This document shows, in pieces, positions 1,877 through 12,877 of a DNA stretch of 64,000 nucleotides (position 1 is its first letter; every line of letters starts with the position of its first letter). Made by a program: the position numbers and the translations under genes. The DNA is from a bacterium (GTDB taxonomy: Bacteria; Bacillota_I; Bacilli_A; RF39; UBA660): the NCBI GenBank assembly GCA_963645945.1, contig CAVIUA010000040.1, forward strand, positions 34,353 through 98,352. The letters are read 5' to 3'. The notes under the pieces were generated by a model. The model saw nothing but the letters and a program-made list of their open reading frames with translations. It was not told the DNA's origin and searched no databases.

Positions 1877-1891
1877 TTTATGAGTATTATA

Positions 1892-1920
1892 ATGTCTATC
1901 TCATTGATAGACATTTTTTC
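1892..1920 (+). terminator. Rho-independent terminator (ATGTCTATC/GATAGACAT plus T5)
   Basis: Perfect 9-bp inverted repeat followed by TTTTT, directly after the TPM gene. Confidence 0.6.
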
Positions 1921-1924
1921 TTTT

Positions 1925-1950
1925 GTTTTGTATAATTAAATATATAATGG
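1925..1950 (+). promoter_or_regulatory. Candidate extended -10 promoter (TGTATAAT) for the helicase module
   Basis: TGTATAAT lies about 25 nt upstream of the GGAGTGA ribosome-binding site and the ATG at 1962. In DNA this AT-rich, chance TATAAT matches are common. Confidence 0.3.
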
Positions 1951-1961
1951 AGTGATTTATA

Positions 1962-2762
1962 ATGAGTGATGTATTTAGTATTGAAAAAGCTAATATTTAT
2001 GAAGACCAGGATAATTATTATTTCTTTAGGGCTCTTAATCTAAATGACTGTAGAGATGCCGATGATGGTGTTATTACAAATGATTCTGGATTAGTTAATC
2101 GAGTTAGAACTGATAGAGAAAGGTATACTGGTGAGTCTAGATATGCTTTTTCGTCAGCTGTTTCTTTAGAAGAAGTTACAGATCATATTAAAATACATCA
2201 GTCTAAAACAACTAATTGTATTTCTTTAACTAGTAATGCTAATACCGCTATTACATATGGTAGAGGATATTATAGGGATAGATATATACTTGTTAAAGTT
2301 CCTAAAAAAGAACTTGGTAGTAAAGTATTTCAAGCTGGACCTTATATGTTGGATGAGATAAATAAGGCAATTAATGAGGTACTTGAAAGTAAAGATGGAG
2401 CAGAAAGAGAAAAATATGAAAGACTTTTTTCAAGAGTTGATGAATGCAAGACAAGCAATAGTTTGGAGACTTTAAAGCAACTTTTAGTAGATGATAATTT
2501 AGTTTCTTTAGAGAATAGAAAAAGAGAAGAAGACAGCTTTGTTAATGGCTTGGATTTTAATATGACAAAGTCGGTTAATTATAATGCGTTAGATGAAGAA
2601 GCTAATTTAGAAAAGAATAAGACTATTCTTAAACTTGATATTTTAAGTGAACAAATATTGCCTAGAATATCTAATAAACTTTTAATAGCAACGGTAGGTG
2701 GTGCTTTTTCTTCATCTGAATTAATTCATTATGGAGATATTGAACCTAGTGAATTAAGATAA
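1962..2762 (+). CDS. Hypothetical protein (266 aa), first gene of the helicase module
   Basis: Own ribosome-binding site (GGAGTGA). No motif I can assign confidently. Same reading frame as the downstream helicase, separated by TAA plus 15 nt that contain a GGAAG ribosome-binding site. Confidence 0.5.
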   Translation: MSDVFSIEKANIYEDQDNYYFFRALNLNDCRDADDGVITNDSGLVNRVRTDRERYTGESRYAFSSAVSLEEVTDHIKIHQSKTTNCISLTSNANTAITYGRGYYRDRYILVKVPKKELGSKVFQAGPYMLDEINKAINEVLESKDGAEREKYERLFSRVDECKTSNSLETLKQLLVDDNLVSLENRKREEDSFVNGLDFNMTKSVNYNALDEEANLEKNKTILKLDILSEQILPRISNKLLIATVGGAFSSSELIHYGDIEPSELR

Positions 2763-2777
2763 ATACAGAAGGAAGTA

Positions 2778-5700
2778 ATGGATGTTTTGTCTTTACTTCA
2801 ACAAATGCCTAGCAATTTAGAATTTATTGATGAAATTAAAGATAGAGTGCTTAATTGTGTAAGTACAAGAATATTTTCTGGTGAATTTAATTATAGTGAT
2901 TTTGATTTAGTTGATAGAGATTTATCGATTGATAATATGTATGAAGTTTTTGGTAATGGTAGAGTTTCTTATGGCGAGGCTAGAGAATTATATAGAAAAG
3001 CTTATTATTTAGCTAAGTCAAGACTTAGGGCTATTAAAAGTGTTAGTTTATTGAATACTATTTTAGATAATAATCCTAAATATAGTGAAACACTTGAATA
3101 TATTGCTAAAAATGGATATGGTATTGAACCGGAAATTACGACTAGAGTTTCTAAAGACTTGGTTACAGTATCTGAATCGGTTAGTTTGGATATAAGTAGT
3201 AAAGATATTGAATTAGTTAATTATATTAATAGTTTAAGTGAAGGTCAGTTAAATACGGTGTTAAATCATCCGAATGACGCAATTAGAGTATTTGCAGCTA
3301 GACATTTCTTTGATGATTTTTCTAGACATACTGTAAATAGAGAAGAATATATTGCTGATAGTTTGATTGATTTGTTAGATTTAAGTAAGTTTGGTGTTAA
3401 ATTTAATTTAAGCCCTGAACAAAGAGAAGATATTAAGAATAGAATTTTAGAATTTAATTTAGAAGAGTTATATTCATATTGTAGTTCTAATGGTGTTTTG
3501 GAAAAAGATATGGCTAGAATAGTCTTTACTAATTTGATTAAAGGAACAAAAGATTTTAATACAAAGGATACTTTTACTTTAGAAGAATTAGAATGGTTCA
3601 TTGGTTATAATGCAATTAAAGATACTAATATAAAGTTACTTGCTTATCAAAGACCTATAATTAGAAGAATTAAAGAAAAATATGAGGATAAACAATTTAC
3701 GGCTGCTGTTATGCCTACTGGAACTGGTAAAACTTATATTAGTTTAGCTATGATGAATGAGTTCGAAAAAACGGCTAATGGTTTAAGTGAAAATAATCAT
3801 GCTAAAATATTGTATTTAGCTCCTAATGTTGAAATACTTGATCAATTAAAGAGAACTATTAGAAAGGCATATCATCCAGAAGAACATCTTGGTCAAGATA
3901 TTGATACGGTTATAAAGGAGGTTTTTCCTAATTTAGTTTTATCAACATATCAGAATTTAGCTGATAATAGTAGTATTGGTATAGGGCCTGATGGCAAAAA
4001 AGAAATTAGTTTAAAAGAAGATTTTAGAGATCAATTTGACTTTATAGTTTTAGATGAATTACATAGAACTGGAGCTCCTGAATGGTATAGTTCTATTGGT
4101 ATGCTTTTAGATAGTCAGGATGAAAAGACGAAGATTTTAGGTATAAGTGCAACACCTGAAAGAGATGTTGATTTTAAAGATATGACAGATTTCTGGGCTA
4201 GAAGATATGACTATAGTGAAGATGAAATTTTACTAGGTGAACAAATGGCTTATAATATGGATCTTATAAAAGCTATAGATTTAGGATTAGTTAATTAACC
4301 AGTAATTATCAATTGCTTGTATTCATTGATTGCTGATGGTACTATGGATGATTTGGAATTGTCAATTGATGATTTATTGGATGAAAATATAAAAAGCACA
4401 GAAAAAGCTAAATATGAGAAGTTAAGACGAAATGTTGAAAATTCTGATGGTATAGAAAAAATCATTGGAGATAATATAAAAGAAGGAAGTAAATTTATTG
4501 TATTTTTACCTGTTACTAGAAGAGATGATGGTACTTTTACTTTAGATGATGGAGAAGAAATTGAAGGTAGTAAAGCAAGTTAAATAATAAGAGATTATCA
4601 AACTTTATTTATACAGTATTTATATGCCAATAAATATTTTAATGAACATGCTCAGATATATGACATTTATGATAAATTGGCAGCTGGAGAGGCTCTTGGC
4701 AATGAAGAAATATCTTATTTAGAAAGTGAAAAGGATAATTTGTTACTGTTGTCAAAAGTCAGTATTTCATATAAGCCAATGGCTTTAAATACACAAATTG
4801 AAGAAATATCTTCAACAATTATTTCTTCGTTGGGCTGGAATGAGTTAGACAAGAATGAACTTGTGACAAGACTTAATGAAGTTATGGGTGATGAAGTAGA
4901 AAATTATTCAATGCTTGGAGAATATTCTAATGGTAGAAATAAATCAGAGTTATATAGTTTTAGTAATTCAAGAAGTAAGAAAAGAAAATTAATGTTTGTT
5001 ATAAACAAGTTAAATGAAGGTACACATGTTGAAGATGTAGACGGAATTGTCTGGTTAAGAACATTGAACGATAATTCCAGAATTTTGTTTCAACAACAAC
5101 TAGGTAGATGTATAAGGGCTAATTTGCCAGATAGACCGGCAAAGACACCTATAGTATTAGACTTGGTTAATAATACGGTAACAGTTAAGTTAAAAAAAGG
5201 CGAATTACAGGAGTCTAGAGATTTAAGTAACTTAGATAGTTTGATTGATTGGTTAGATGATAATAATAGAATACCAAATATTAATAGTGAAAATATCACT
5301 GAATATGAATATGCTAAATTTATAAAAGTTTTACAAGATAGATATGTTAAATATTTTGATGAAGATGTTTTACAAGAAAACAAGAATACTTTAAATATTC
5401 AGATTATTAAAAGAATTCTTTCTAAAGGTTCTGAAGCTGGTTTATGGGATGTTGAAATATTAGATAAAAATGATAAATATACCGATGATATTAAGAAAAA
5501 CAGTGTTACTGATTATTCATTTATTGGAAGACTCCAAGTAAGTTCTGAAATACATGACTTTTTAGAATTACAAGGAGAAATTAGTTCATATGAGCCAACT
5601 GATCTTGAGACAAAATTTGAAGAGTATTGTCAAATTTTAACTAATTTGAAGGAACAAGGACTAAATCCTAATTTAAGAATAGGAGATAAAGTACTCGTTA

Positions 5701-6077
5701 ATGAAGAAGGAAGCTTGGAAGTTATAAGTGTGCCATCGGTTCGTAAAGAAGGTAAGCCAAATCTTTCTATAATAAATGGTAGAAAAGAGACAGAAATTGA
5801 ATGGAGAGAAAGGAAGAAAAAATATTCATCTAAAGAGGCTATTCCTGTTGGTAACTGGCTATATAAAAATTATTCTGAATTTACTCATTCTATGAGGGAT
5901 AGATTAATAGATCTCGGCTATACTAAAGGTGAAGAGAGCCTAAAAAGAAGAACTGCACATGCTAAAAAGAAGGCTGATTTTGATGATAACAGTACCTTTG
6001 GTAAGGTTGTTACTGAGGTTTCCAAAGGAGCTTTAGATAATAAAGATACTGATGTGAAAGCTGGTGATAAGAAATGA
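2778..6077 (+). pseudogene. Superfamily-2 DExH-type helicase (~1100 aa composite) interrupted by in-frame TAA codons at 4296..4298 and 4581..4583
   Basis: ORFs 2778..4298, 4317..4583 and 4677..6077 are all in frame 0 with no frameshift between them. Helicase motif I (AAVMPTGTGKTY), motif II (FIVLDELHR) and motif III (GISATPE) are in the first segment. A motif IV-like KFIVFLP is in the second. Motif VI (FQQQLGRCIRA) is in the third. Long non-helicase extensions of about 300 aa at each end. Confidence 0.6.
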
Positions 6078-6334
6078 TGGAAAGTTATTATGAGTTAGTT
6101 GATTCTTTTAAAGACTTGGATGTTTATGATAAGAAAGAAGAAATAATTAATGAATTATTAAGCTTATTAAAACTTCTGTCTGTAGTTAATAAAAATTCGG
6201 ATGTTATGAATGAAGTATTACCTGTTATACAGAGTCATGATGATGAAGAGGAATACTTTGATGAGTTATTTACAATAATCATATCTTTGAAGGAAGAATA
6301 TGCTAAGTTAATAGATAGAGATTATTTAGATTAA
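6074..6334 (+). CDS. Small acidic hypothetical protein (86 aa), translationally coupled to the helicase
   Basis: Its ATG overlaps the helicase stop as ATGA. pI is clearly acidic (DDEEEYFDELF). A terminator follows. Confidence 0.5.
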   Translation: MMESYYELVDSFKDLDVYDKKEEIINELLSLLKLLSVVNKNSDVMNEVLPVIQSHDDEEEYFDELFTIIISLKEEYAKLIDRDYLD

Positions 6335-6360
6335 TAGCAAGAAAAACTTGCTATTTTTCT
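6335..6360 (+). terminator. Rho-independent terminator (TAGCAAG/CTTGCTA plus T5)
   Basis: 7-bp stem with a 5-nt loop and a T-run immediately after the stop at 6334. It closes the 1962..6334 operon. Confidence 0.6.
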
Positions 6361-6393
6361 TTATTTGATAAAGTATTTTTGTTATAATATTTT

Positions 6394-8995: not shown

Positions 8996-10303
8996 TTGAA
9001 AGAAATAGAAAAGGCTTTTATAGTTAATGCAGGTAATTCATATACACCTGATGATTATGGTGTTATTTTATATCGAGATGGTACGCGTGAATATTTAGAT
9101 ACTGGTACATTTTTAGATAGATTAAATAGTGAATCTAATACTTTAAGAGAAATACCAAGTATAACAAAAATGCAATTTGTTACTGATTATTCTTATTTTA
9201 AAGATGAATTTAATGATTTTGTTCATAGTCAGAATAATGTAAAGGACAGAAAAGCAAAAATTGTAATGGAGAGACTTGGTTTGGACTTTAATACAATGTA
9301 TGATATTTATGAATATGAATCATATAAAAAGGCTTCGGATGAAGAATCGGTTAATCGAATTGATTCATTTGTTGATAGATGCTTTGAAATTGCTTCTAGT
9401 GAGTGTAGAAGATCAGGTATTTCTTATAATAGGAATAAAAAAGAAATTATTGAAAGCGTTTTGAGTAAGACAGTAAAAAATGAAAGTTATCCTTCTGGCA
9501 TAGATATAAGTTTTTGTACTAGTCGTGATGCTGTCTATGATAAATATGATGAAGATGTTAATCAAGCTAGTAATAGTAGAGATTTAGATAAAATTTCTAA
9601 AGATTATAGATATATTAGACAATTTTATCTTATTTCTTATTTATCTTCATTTATGGGAAATGAGAGTGATTTTCTTCTTGCTTTAGTTGATAATGCATAT
9701 CCTAATCGGAATTTAATTTTAGAGAATTGGACTGAGTTTTTCTCTGTATGCAGGGAATATTCTGGTATAATTGACGCTGTTAATGAATGTTCAAATGATT
9801 CAGAAAAGTTAAAAGCTGATTTTGATTTACTTAACCTTGAAAGTAATAAGAAATTTATGAATGATTTGGATTTATTACTTGAACATAATCCAGATGAAGA
9901 AACATATTATTTTCATGCTACTAATTCTAGAACTAGTGCACAAAATATCTTGGATAAAGGTTTATATATGTATGCTGATGATTTAAGTTCTACTACTTAT
10001 CCTGAACTTACTAAGAAAGACGTGCTAAGTTATGAATATGGAAATGGATTAGGTAATAGTGCTACATATGTTGTGGTACTTAAGTGTAGAGAAGGAGATA
10101 ATATAGTTAGAAATACAACTGATTTTGAAAAGAAAGAAAGTGTTGGTGTTTCTAGAAGAATGGCTTTGGTTTCTGAAGAATGTGATTATATAGTTGATCC
10201 TGAAAATATCGTTGGATTTATTGATAGAAAAAAAGGAGAGGTTGTTTTTAACAAAATGGTAAAAAAAGATACTAATTCTAAGGAGGGTAAAAATGAAAAG
10301 TAG
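8996..10303 (+). CDS. Hypothetical protein (435 aa) sitting where mutL would normally be
   Basis: TTG start with a GGTGA ribosome-binding site. No Bergerat-fold (GHKL) ATPase motifs, so it is not MutL. The C-terminal region (YYFHATNSRTS...GLYMYADD) gives no confident assignment. Confidence 0.45.
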   Translation: MKEIEKAFIVNAGNSYTPDDYGVILYRDGTREYLDTGTFLDRLNSESNTLREIPSITKMQFVTDYSYFKDEFNDFVHSQNNVKDRKAKIVMERLGLDFNTMYDIYEYESYKKASDEESVNRIDSFVDRCFEIASSECRRSGISYNRNKKEIIESVLSKTVKNESYPSGIDISFCTSRDAVYDKYDEDVNQASNSRDLDKISKDYRYIRQFYLISYLSSFMGNESDFLLALVDNAYPNRNLILENWTEFFSVCREYSGIIDAVNECSNDSEKLKADFDLLNLESNKKFMNDLDLLLEHNPDEETYYFHATNSRTSAQNILDKGLYMYADDLSSTTYPELTKKDVLSYEYGNGLGNSATYVVVLKCREGDNIVRNTTDFEKKESVGVSRRMALVSEECDYIVDPENIVGFIDRKKGEVVFNKMVKKDTNSKEGKNEK

Positions 10304-11960: not shown

Positions 11961-12877
11961 TGAGTAAGAAAAATGATTATTCTTTTGGTATATATTTTTA
12001 TATTTTATTAGGAATGAGTTTAGCTGGTACTATATCTTTAGTTATACTTTATTCTATTATTAGCACGTATTCAGTTTGTGCCGATGATTTAATTTATGAA
12101 TTTGTTAGGAGAATTTTTGTTTTCTTTTCTTTAGAAAATGGTATTTTGTATTTATATTGTTTGATTTCACTTATTTTGGCAGGAAAGAAGAAACTCATTA
12201 ATTTTAAAATGATTCTTTTAATTATATTTGCTATTCTTTCTAGTCCTGTTGTTTGTCATTTTATTCAAAATACTATTTCTAGTCTTAATTCATATTTTCA
12301 TGTTGAAGTGAATGGTAATATTGTCACTGATGATAAACCAATGCTATATGTATATCCAACAGAGGATATGGATTTAACTATAAAATTAAAAAATGATAAT
12401 TTAATTACATATTCATATCCTAAGTATAATAATGAATGGAGCGTTCACGCTACTGTTGATGGCAATTTATATGATTATGAAACAGGTAGAAATTATTATG
12501 CATTATTTTGGGAAGGTATTGATAATAATATTTACGATATGAATGAAGGGTTTGTCGTTACTGGTAAAGATACTGTTAAGTTCTTGGAAGAGAAATTAAG
12601 TATACTTGGATTGAATGATAGAGAAATTAATGAGTTTATAGTATATTGGCTACCTAAGATGGAAGATAATAAATATAATTATATAAGATTTAGAACTGAA
12701 GATGAGATAAATACTTATATGCCTATTGAATTTAGTAGTAATCCTGATACTTTAATAAGAATATATATGGATTTTAAAGGATTAGATAAGAAAGTTAATA
12801 TAAAAGAACAAAAGTTAACTAGTGTTAGTAGAGAAGGATTTACTGTTGTTGAATGGGGCGGCAGAGAACTAAAGTAA
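11957..12877 (+). CDS. Hypothetical membrane protein inserted between xseA and xseB
   Basis: Four or five N-terminal transmembrane helices and a soluble C-terminal domain. Overlaps the xseA stop by 4 nt. Confidence 0.5.
   Translation: MMSKKNDYSFGIYFYILLGMSLAGTISLVILYSIISTYSVCADDLIYEFVRRIFVFFSLENGILYLYCLISLILAGKKKLINFKMILLIIFAILSSPVVCHFIQNTISSLNSYFHVEVNGNIVTDDKPMLYVYPTEDMDLTIKLKNDNLITYSYPKYNNEWSVHATVDGNLYDYETGRNYYALFWEGIDNNIYDMNEGFVVTGKDTVKFLEEKLSILGLNDREINEFIVYWLPKMEDNKYNYIRFRTEDEINTYMPIEFSSNPDTLIRIYMDFKGLDKKVNIKEQKLTSVSREGFTVVEWGGRELK

Follow-up and report, generated by a model that had tools for sequence, protein, structure and literature searches.

The window analysed here is a bacterial DNA stretch of 64,000 nucleotides (GenBank assembly GCA_963645945.1, contig CAVIUA010000040.1, positions 34,353 to 98,352 of the forward strand). 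Close to its beginning, between a lemA-TPM gene pair and mutS, lies a unit that an earlier reading of the sequence (the original prediction) had described as a module of three genes, encoding a 266-aa protein, a giant helicase and a small acidic protein. We found that the first two are in fact a single gene, which three nonsense mutations have disrupted. What remains here is a copy, inactivated recently, of a module with two genes: a giant gene (gene A) and, after it, a small coupled gene (gene B).

A giant gene with three in-frame stop codons

The unit contains the following features.

1891..1925, + strand: terminator-like hairpin with T-run (10-bp stem, 5-nt loop, T-rich tail), closing the upstream lemA-TPM unit
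1908..1936, + strand: promoter-like site, TAGACA-17-TATAAT, 11/12 matches
1949-1952, + strand: GGAG Shine-Dalgarno sequence, 5′ of the giant-gene ATG at 1962
1962..6077, + strand: giant pseudogene (ART-like domain and helicase), 1371 codons with three in-frame TAA; the homologues P0001-P0007 align in one frame
2760..2762, + strand: in-frame TAA no. 1, codon 267; Glu in relatives (GAA>TAA)
4296..4298, + strand: in-frame TAA no. 2, codon 779; Ser in relatives (TCA>TAA)
4581..4583, + strand: in-frame TAA no. 3, codon 874; Gln in relatives (CAA>TAA)
6074..6334, + strand: 86-aa acidic partner gene, its ATG overlapping the giant-gene TGA
6333..6355, + strand: terminator-like hairpin, closing the unit 5′ of mutS

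The borders of the unit agreed with the original prediction. Two terminator-like hairpins (1891-1915 and 6333-6355) bracket it as a self-contained unit, and the window neighbours were confirmed as LemA, TPM and MutS. The promoter-like site is also present, at 1908-1936; the frequency of such sites as a class in this region was not above that in shuffled sequence.

The interior of the unit had to be redrawn. The listing of open reading frames (ORFs) gave products of 266 aa (1962-2762), 506 aa (2778-4298), 88 aa (4317-4583), 466 aa (4677-6077) and 86 aa (6074-6334). The helicase gene of about 1100 aa, proposed for 2778-6077, is not open, and TAA codons at 4296 and 4581 split it into 506, 88 and 466 aa. 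The proposed 266-aa gene does exist as an ORF, but it is in the same frame as the helicase region and is parted from it only by the TAA at 2760. The common frame runs from 1962 to 6077 and comprises 1371 codons.

When the read-through translation was used as the query, 277 relatives were found. The closest ones, P0001-P0007, are 87-93% identical and are single proteins of 1495-1741 aa, which align from 1962 to about 6077. All 120 relatives listed, out of the 277, carry the 266-aa part at their own N terminus, save for a few partial sequences that start later. Since it is fused from residue 1 in the relatives listed, the 266-aa part is a domain and not a gene. Furthermore, orthologues in the same position (lemA-TPM-X-86aa-mutS) have a single protein of 1370-1981 aa with no interruption. 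The gene order lemA-TPM-giant-86aa-mutS-(variable ORF)-nusB-xseA was observed with an intact giant gene at L001 (4072-8559), L002, L011, L013 and L091 (6001-11202). Intact orthologues of 1495-1733 aa occupy this position.

Each of the three TAA codons differs from the codon of the relatives by a single base. The first precedes the ATG at 2778 by five codons, and this ATG is found 16 nt past the stop. Because AGGA precedes this ATG, re-initiation there is conceivable; we regard the AGGA as accidental. The ORFs of 88 and 466 aa begin only at TTG, 18 and 93 nt past the respective stops. The stops at 4296 and 4581 fall inside the motor, between motifs III and VI. They part RecA lobe 1 from lobe 2, and therefore the module of the window is not expected to work. 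The window copy is almost certainly non-functional, and we hold with near certainty that the locus is a single gene disrupted by nonsense mutations. As a lesson for annotation, a nonsense mutation in this pseudogene detached a domain, which was then read as an ORF for an unknown protein.

Other explanations of the stops were considered. Recoding or read-through of TAA was excluded, because TAA is the usual stop codon of the window (it terminates 36 of the 52 long ORFs) and the three TAA replace different residues (E, S and Q). The window has one tRNA only, tRNA-Glu(CTC). An assembly or sequencing artefact is unlikely: the 266-aa fragment was also called in a Logan assembly, and a near-identical 466-aa C-terminal fragment (P0311), which begins 3′ of stop no. 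3 and differs at two internal residues, was found in another assembly.

The ratio of nonsynonymous to synonymous substitution rates (dN/dS) of the window copy against three intact orthologues was about 0.2, equal to that among the intact copies. With L001 as the outgroup, 48 synonymous, 31 missense and 3 nonsense changes were counted on the window branch, against 37, 24 and 0 on the branch of the intact sister. Neither dN/dS nor the branch counts showed detectable relaxation of constraint on the window branch. Thus, the inactivation was recent. Three stops are somewhat above the neutral-decay expectation for so few extra missense changes. This excess is mild and not significant, and was not accepted as evidence of selection for a knock-out.

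An imperfect 14-nt direct repeat (TATAATGGAGTGAT / TTATAATGAGTGATG) at 1943-1974 extends across the giant gene's ribosome-binding site and start codon. Its first copy contains a dead-end ATG at 1947 (ATG GAG TGA). Searches of the region for Rfam families and tandem DNA repeats gave nothing of note.

Domains of the giant protein

The frame was divided into domains as follows; ART stands for ADP-ribosyltransferase and SF2 for superfamily 2.

1962..2759, + strand: ART-like domain, aa 1-266, with the predicted triad R23, S88 and E253
2016-2036, + strand: R23 in YYFFRAL
2214-2237, + strand: S88 in NCISLTSN
2706-2732, + strand: E253 in FSSSELIHY
2778..3611, + strand: middle domain, aa 273-550, mostly helical, with no recognisable fold
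3627..5531, + strand: SF2 motor of ResIII type, with a long insert between motifs III and VI
3702-3737, + strand: motif I (AAVMPTGTGKTY)
4047-4076, + strand: motif II (DELH)
4134-4163, + strand: motif III (SAT)
5091-5120, + strand: motif VI (QQQLGRCIRA)
5604..5972, + strand: C-terminal repeat of about 120 aa (HA-like), single copy; repeated high-scoring segment pairs of the relatives fall on this stretch

N-terminal domain: The alignment-based AlphaFold (AF2) model of aa 1-266 had a pLDDT of 86.7. When this model was searched with Foldseek, the first 21 matches were all ARTs (cholera, LT, Plt, TreX and typhoid toxin), with E-values that were not significant (best 0.38). The nearest structural neighbours are protein-modifying toxins; the best of them, cholera toxin/LT, pertussis S1/ArtA, CARDS and TreX, are toxins with an Arg-Ser-Glu (R-S-E) triad. 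In the model, R23 ends the first strand (18-24), S88 lies in the strand CISLT (86-90), which is followed by a helix, and E253 opens the strand ELIHY (253-257). S88 is followed by T/S90 and S91. Among the family sequences, R23 was conserved in 237 of 238, S88 in 237 of 239 and E253 in 238 of 238. As predicted from these sequences, the triad is the R-S-E pattern, which marks one of the three major clades of ARTs (PMC9503650).

The likeness to R-S-E toxins thus covers the Arg at the end of strand 1, the Ser-x-Ser/Thr that lies in strand 2 ahead of a helix, and the Glu at the start of a later strand. Unlike these toxins, the domain of the giant protein has no sequence-family match, carries S-x-E, has a helical insert of about 125 residues between strands, and is not secreted but fused to a cytoplasmic motor. 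No curated ART family in Pfam, NCBIfam, PHROG or PADLOC matched the N-terminal domain, and a profile of the domain gave no relevant match against PDB sequences. We consider an ART fold quite probable. The 266-aa protein, formerly described as lacking any recognisable motif, can no longer be so regarded, since it has an ART-like fold and the triad. The surroundings of the triad may also resemble the cholera toxin A1 contexts LYRAD, YVSTSISL and EQEVSALGGI.

Motor: The SF2 motifs I, II, III and VI reported earlier were seen again, and Pfam assigned the motor to ResIII with 86.2 bits (cut-off 22.5) and to DEAD with 54.6 bits (cut-off 26). In the motor-core alignment (A3), GxGK, DExH, T/SAT and QxxGR are invariant. 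For Helicase_C, the model of the second RecA lobe (cut-off 23.5 bits), the window piece scored 15.2 and the relative P0045 scored 26.7. The A3 profile matched the PDB sequences 7clg (1.5e-17), 3h1t (4.4e-12), 4xqk (7.8e-9) and 5ffj (1.7e-8), mainly over lobe 1. The entry 7clg is listed as 'Putative helicase' in the match table, and we take it to be SauUSI. The order of the matches was accordingly SauUSI, then HsdR, LlaBIII/LlaGI, RadD and XPB; SauUSI, HsdR, LlaBIII and LlaGI are the best matches of the motor among solved structures, with similarity mainly in RecA lobe 1. The matches came from the profile search only, and a single motor sequence gave none against the PDB.

The NCBIfam models for RadD, XPB, Hef, Dnd restriction and Cas3' gave 18-55 bits against cut-offs of 600-720 (Cas3' 18 against 69), and those for RecQ, UvrB, RecG and PriA gave no match at all. 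With scores so far below the cut-offs, an ordinary repair or replication helicase was rejected. The earlier view that the motor is none of RecQ, UvrB, RecG, PriA, RadD, XPB and Cas3 was upheld.

C-terminal repeats: The relatives carry about 1 to 6 or more copies of the repeat. With Pfam HA (PF03457), the relative P0011 reached 48.6 bits (cut-off 28.4), a score summed over the repeats with no single stretch significant, and HA was undetected in the single repeat of the window copy. The number of repeats varies among near-identical alleles: the window copy and the 1370-aa alleles have one, P0003 has two, P0312 has four, and the 1981-aa alleles have more. Frameshifts inside the repeat array were observed in several relatives (L010, L094-L098).

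The small downstream gene and the distribution of the family

The 86-aa ORF is coupled to the giant gene, since its ATG shares the tetranucleotide ATGA with the upstream TGA. The protein is very acidic, as had been stated, with an isoelectric point of 4.1 and 23 D+E against 8 K+R. Pfam gave nothing above noise (best E 0.039), and PADLOC, PHROGs and NCBIfam gave no match. We found 54 clusters of homologues. In every context that was read, the homologue lies directly 3′ of the giant gene or its fragments and overlaps its end, in widely differing neighbourhoods. The expectation that the small acidic gene accompanies the helicase in distant relatives was therefore borne out. In genomes without a separate copy, the 86-aa protein was not found fused to the giant protein.

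Of about 52 complete loci, about 33 have a small overlapping downstream ORF, and these ORFs are of three unrelated kinds. What is conserved is the small coupled gene 3′ of the giant one as such, not the 86-aa protein itself. Apart from the 86-aa kind, an ORF of 146-160 aa was observed at L024, L031, L040, L045, L046, L056, L057, L062, L074, L076 and L081, and an ORF of 122-144 aa at L036, L041, L048, L058, L067, L073 and L084. Both are unrelated to the 86-aa protein and usually overlap the stop codon of the giant gene by 13 nt. They share an amphipathic YKENIFxKI...F motif, which is C-terminal in one kind and N-terminal in the other.

The family proteins are about 1370-2900 aa long. The profile of the ART-like domain found 278 clusters among 1.84 billion representatives, with nearly all matches N-terminal in giant proteins or in fragments of these. 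In GTDB species genomes, 188 loci of the giant-gene family were detected. All of the 80 loci that were kept are from metagenome-assembled genomes of uncultured gut bacteria, most of them labelled Bacilli, Clostridia, Clostridium, Mollicutes or Tenericutes. No relative of the ART-like domain was found in 50,697 GenBank phage records, 72,556 PLSDB plasmids or 2.9 million IMG/VR contigs. Several genomes have 2-3 copies of the giant gene. Examples are L012 and L013, about 30 kb apart on CAKPMY010000006.1, the genome CAKPBJ01 (L018, L086 and L087) and CAG:433 (L077 and L090). In such genomes, one copy can occupy the mutS position with an 84-aa partner, and another can lie elsewhere without a partner.

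The context of the giant gene differs in most other genomes, and no conserved partner was found among 148 flanking proteins. The census of these proteins gave scattered serine recombinases, topoisomerases, NikA/MobC, Bro-N, RhuM, YhcG and HsdS, and some candidate families of PADLOC. Some distant copies adjoin a Mob_Pre relaxase, NikA/MobC, large serine recombinases, Bro-N or topoisomerases.

Decay is not confined to the window. Among the fully covered loci (about 70), about 43 are intact, 12 have a conserved +1 frameshift, and about 15 have unique stops, frameshifts or truncations. In another species, the position of the giant gene is syntenic in five samples (pyruvate kinase ... giant-86aa-GH25). 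Three of the five have a TAA in common at codon 585 (L094 at 2927, L096 at 3165, L097 at 2904), together with a frameshift in the repeats. The copy of L095 (2482-7011) is intact, and that of L098 has only a frameshift around the C-terminal repeats. Intact and dead alleles coexist in populations. The family behaves like accessory genes that carry a cost or are useful only under some conditions, and its variable context, multiple copies and frequent inactivation are like those of conflict genes. The coexistence of intact and nonsense alleles suggests such a cost or conditional use, itself a testable signature of a conflict system.

A minority clade has an HD domain before the ART-like domain, in the order HD-ART-middle-helicase, with proteins of 2100-2900 aa. 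Its members include P0265, P0284, P0293 and P0278, as well as L092 (5705-13237) and L093 (707-8239). The HD domain is of the phosphohydrolase/nuclease type, and the giant gene of this clade is followed by a 127-aa ORF at +3 nt, which takes the place of the 86-aa gene and is unrelated to it.

The conserved +1 change of frame occurs at one site in twelve species-level genomes (L024, L027, L030, L032, L043, L045 at 12039-12052, L046, L049, L054, L059, L061 and L080), about 50 codons past helicase motif I. In the 0 frame, the sequence is ACG ATT CGG AAG AAG TAA, and the +1 frame runs on as TTC GGA AGA AGT AAA (FGRSKDE...). The CGG of the 0 frame is kept in 12 of 12; with 17 occurrences among 36,890 codons, no Arg codon is rarer there. 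The Phe codon of the +1 frame is the rare TTC in 11 of 12. At these loci, no start codon for a second gene is present, and both halves are open and conserved. This pattern suggests programmed +1 frameshifting, with CGG as the hungry codon.

Possible function, alternative readings and a neighbouring ORF

The giant protein shares its layout with SauUSI (type IV), LlaGI/LlaBIII (type ISP) and HsdR (type I): an N-terminal effector, an SF2 translocase of ResIII type and a C-terminal recognition region. Because effector, ResIII motor and C-terminal array are arranged as in single-chain ATP-dependent restriction enzymes, we infer a DNA-translocating, NAD+-using enzyme. Whereas these restriction enzymes carry an N-terminal nuclease of the PLD, Mrr or PD-(D/E)xK type, the giant protein has the ART-like domain instead, and no nuclease family was detected. 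The giant protein is also without a methyltransferase, and its C terminus consists of HA-like repeats, in contrast to the known target-recognition domain of restriction enzymes. With PADLOC, the motor gave weak matches to REase_I and mREase_IV.

Cas3 also joins an effector, the HD domain, to an SF2 helicase. The long HD variants of the family share this order, and therefore make the parallel explicit; weak PADLOC matches to Cas3 were obtained on the motor. Unlike Cas3, the window protein has no HD domain and no CRISPR-Cas context, and it scored below the NCBIfam cut-off for Cas3'. DarTG and CmdTAC resemble the proposed module in concept: an ART effector acts as a poison of nucleic acid or of its use, and a partner protein restrains it.

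Our preferred reading, to which we give a probability of roughly 0.45, is that intact copies are restriction-like DNA translocases that deliver an NAD+-using, ART-like effector against foreign DNA. The C-terminal repeats and the motor would load onto DNA and translocate along it, and translocation would bring the N-terminal effector to its target. The ART-like domain, in the place that the nuclease occupies in the single-chain restriction-enzyme layout, would use NAD+ for the ADP-ribosylation of DNA or of a protein bound to it, or may merely consume NAD+. The small partner would restrain or tune the enzyme, as a brake or an adaptor. The role of the module would be conflict with foreign DNA, that is, defence.

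Several observations weigh against this reading. In 227 of 238 sequences, Ser occupies position 251, so that S-x-E stands in place of the usual [QE]-x-E. About a third of the complete loci (e.g. L003, L006, L021 and L055) have no small partner, which is therefore not an obligatory antitoxin. Significant enrichment in defence islands was not shown: about 10 of the 148 neighbours match PADLOC, mostly candidate families. In the lineage of the window, the unit has a stable chromosomal housekeeping position, adjacent to mutS and without mobility genes, that at least five related genomes share. Finally, the window copy is dead and says nothing about function in this organism. The conflict-system reading of the original prediction is thus supported in part: the population behaviour of the family fits it, but the stable chromosomal position of the locus, with no obvious island, does not. 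The statement that no named system matches was confirmed. PADLOC 2.0 gave generic matches to the helicase core only (PbeA 3e-12, REase_I 1e-11, HamB 3e-3) and none to the ART-like domain, the middle domain or the 86-aa protein. For Hachiman, Druantia, DISARM, Zorya, type IV restriction enzymes and Pbe, there was no specific match and no partner gene nearby, and these candidates were rejected.

The same ART, motor and triad evidence fits abortive infection by an NADase, in which the motor senses foreign nucleic acid, the ART-fold domain hydrolyses NAD+ and the infected cell stops growing. ART-fold domains can act as NADases (PMC9503650), and the atypical S-x-E could suit non-transferase chemistry. 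However, nothing separates this reading from target modification and the nearest structural neighbours modify proteins; we consider it unlikely. A little less probable is a factor of mobile elements that, like polyvalent proteins, is delivered with or acts on incoming element DNA, modifies host targets and aids establishment or counter-defence. Polyvalent proteins are likewise giant and multidomain and combine an ART with an SF2 ATPase (PMC5512222). Giant-gene relatives gave weak matches to PF18766 (SWI2_SNF2), and a few copies lie by the mobilisation genes, recombinases, Bro-N and topoisomerases noted above. On the other hand, the ARTs of polyvalent proteins are of the H-Y-D clade (Tox-ART-HYD2), and R-S-E ARTs belonging to the Alt/VIP2 family are reportedly absent from true polyvalent proteins, so that the R-S-E triad of the giant protein belongs to the wrong clade. 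Pfam detected none of the polyvalent hub domains (MPTase, ArdC-N, MuF, methylase). The absence of relatives from the phage, plasmid and IMG/VR collections, and the stable chromosomal synteny of the window lineage, also disagree with a mobile factor.

An addiction pair of the toxin-antitoxin kind, in which the small coupled protein would be the antitoxin or immunity protein of an ART toxin with no dedicated defence role, is slightly less probable again. A tightly overlapping small gene is usual, its unrelated kinds recall immunity genes, which are often so, and frequent inactivation of the large gene suits a costly toxin. Against it, about a third of the complete loci lack the small gene, and the obligatory co-occurrence of a toxin with an adjacent antitoxin, the criterion for type II toxin-antitoxin systems, was not found. 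In addition, the putative toxin is tethered to a motor and repeats of more than 1000 aa under purifying selection. The survival of the window partner beside a broken 'toxin' is compatible with addiction but not diagnostic. A housekeeping helicase for DNA repair or recombination in reduced genomes, linked to mutS, is suggested by its place beside mutS in at least five related genomes and by weak similarity to RadD, XPB and Hef. It is very improbable, since the family scores are far under the cut-offs, the context is different in most genomes, some genomes have several copies, and many copies are pseudogenes, that of the window included. We give the least credence to separate functional proteins (a 266-aa ART, the split helicase pieces and the 86-aa protein) that form a working complex here. 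Stop no. 1 lies exactly at the ART boundary, with an ATG and its AGGA 16 nt on, and no relaxation of dN/dS was detectable. But the other two stops cut the motor between motifs III and VI, the 88- and 466-aa pieces start only at TTG, the full-length relatives are all single chains, and the stops replace three different amino acids.

Intact copies represent a family in gut Bacilli that is apparently undescribed and probably related to conflict. The family appears undescribed in the libraries and literature searched, and the combination of an ART with a restriction motor is absent from Pfam, NCBIfam and PADLOC. Going further, we tentatively propose, with some doubt, that the intact members may form a new single-chain, restriction-like class. 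In this class, a ResIII translocase would deliver an ART (HD plus ART in one sub-clade) to foreign DNA or its bound proteins and modify instead of cutting, under the control of a swappable, unrelated small partner; one clade would need the programmed +1 frameshift at a near-unassigned CGG. If the translocase reading is true, small-genome gut Bacilli carry giant proteins in which a restriction-enzyme motor is coupled to a modifying domain that uses NAD+, and the effector-plus-helicase logic known from Cas3 and from restriction enzymes of types I, ISP and IV would extend to ADP-ribosylation. Such a protein would be a tractable single-protein system for DNA-guided ADP-ribosylation.

Between mutS and nusB, a further ORF of 435 aa (8996-10303, + strand) has no family or PDB match. 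It is carried by L001, L007 and L091 and is missing from L002 and L013. This ORF evolves fast: against L091, its dN/dS was 0.67 and its dN 0.24, and the dN of the adjoining mutS was 0.003. Its C-terminal pattern, YYFHATN...SSTTY, might mark a candidate for a further NAD+-type enzyme.

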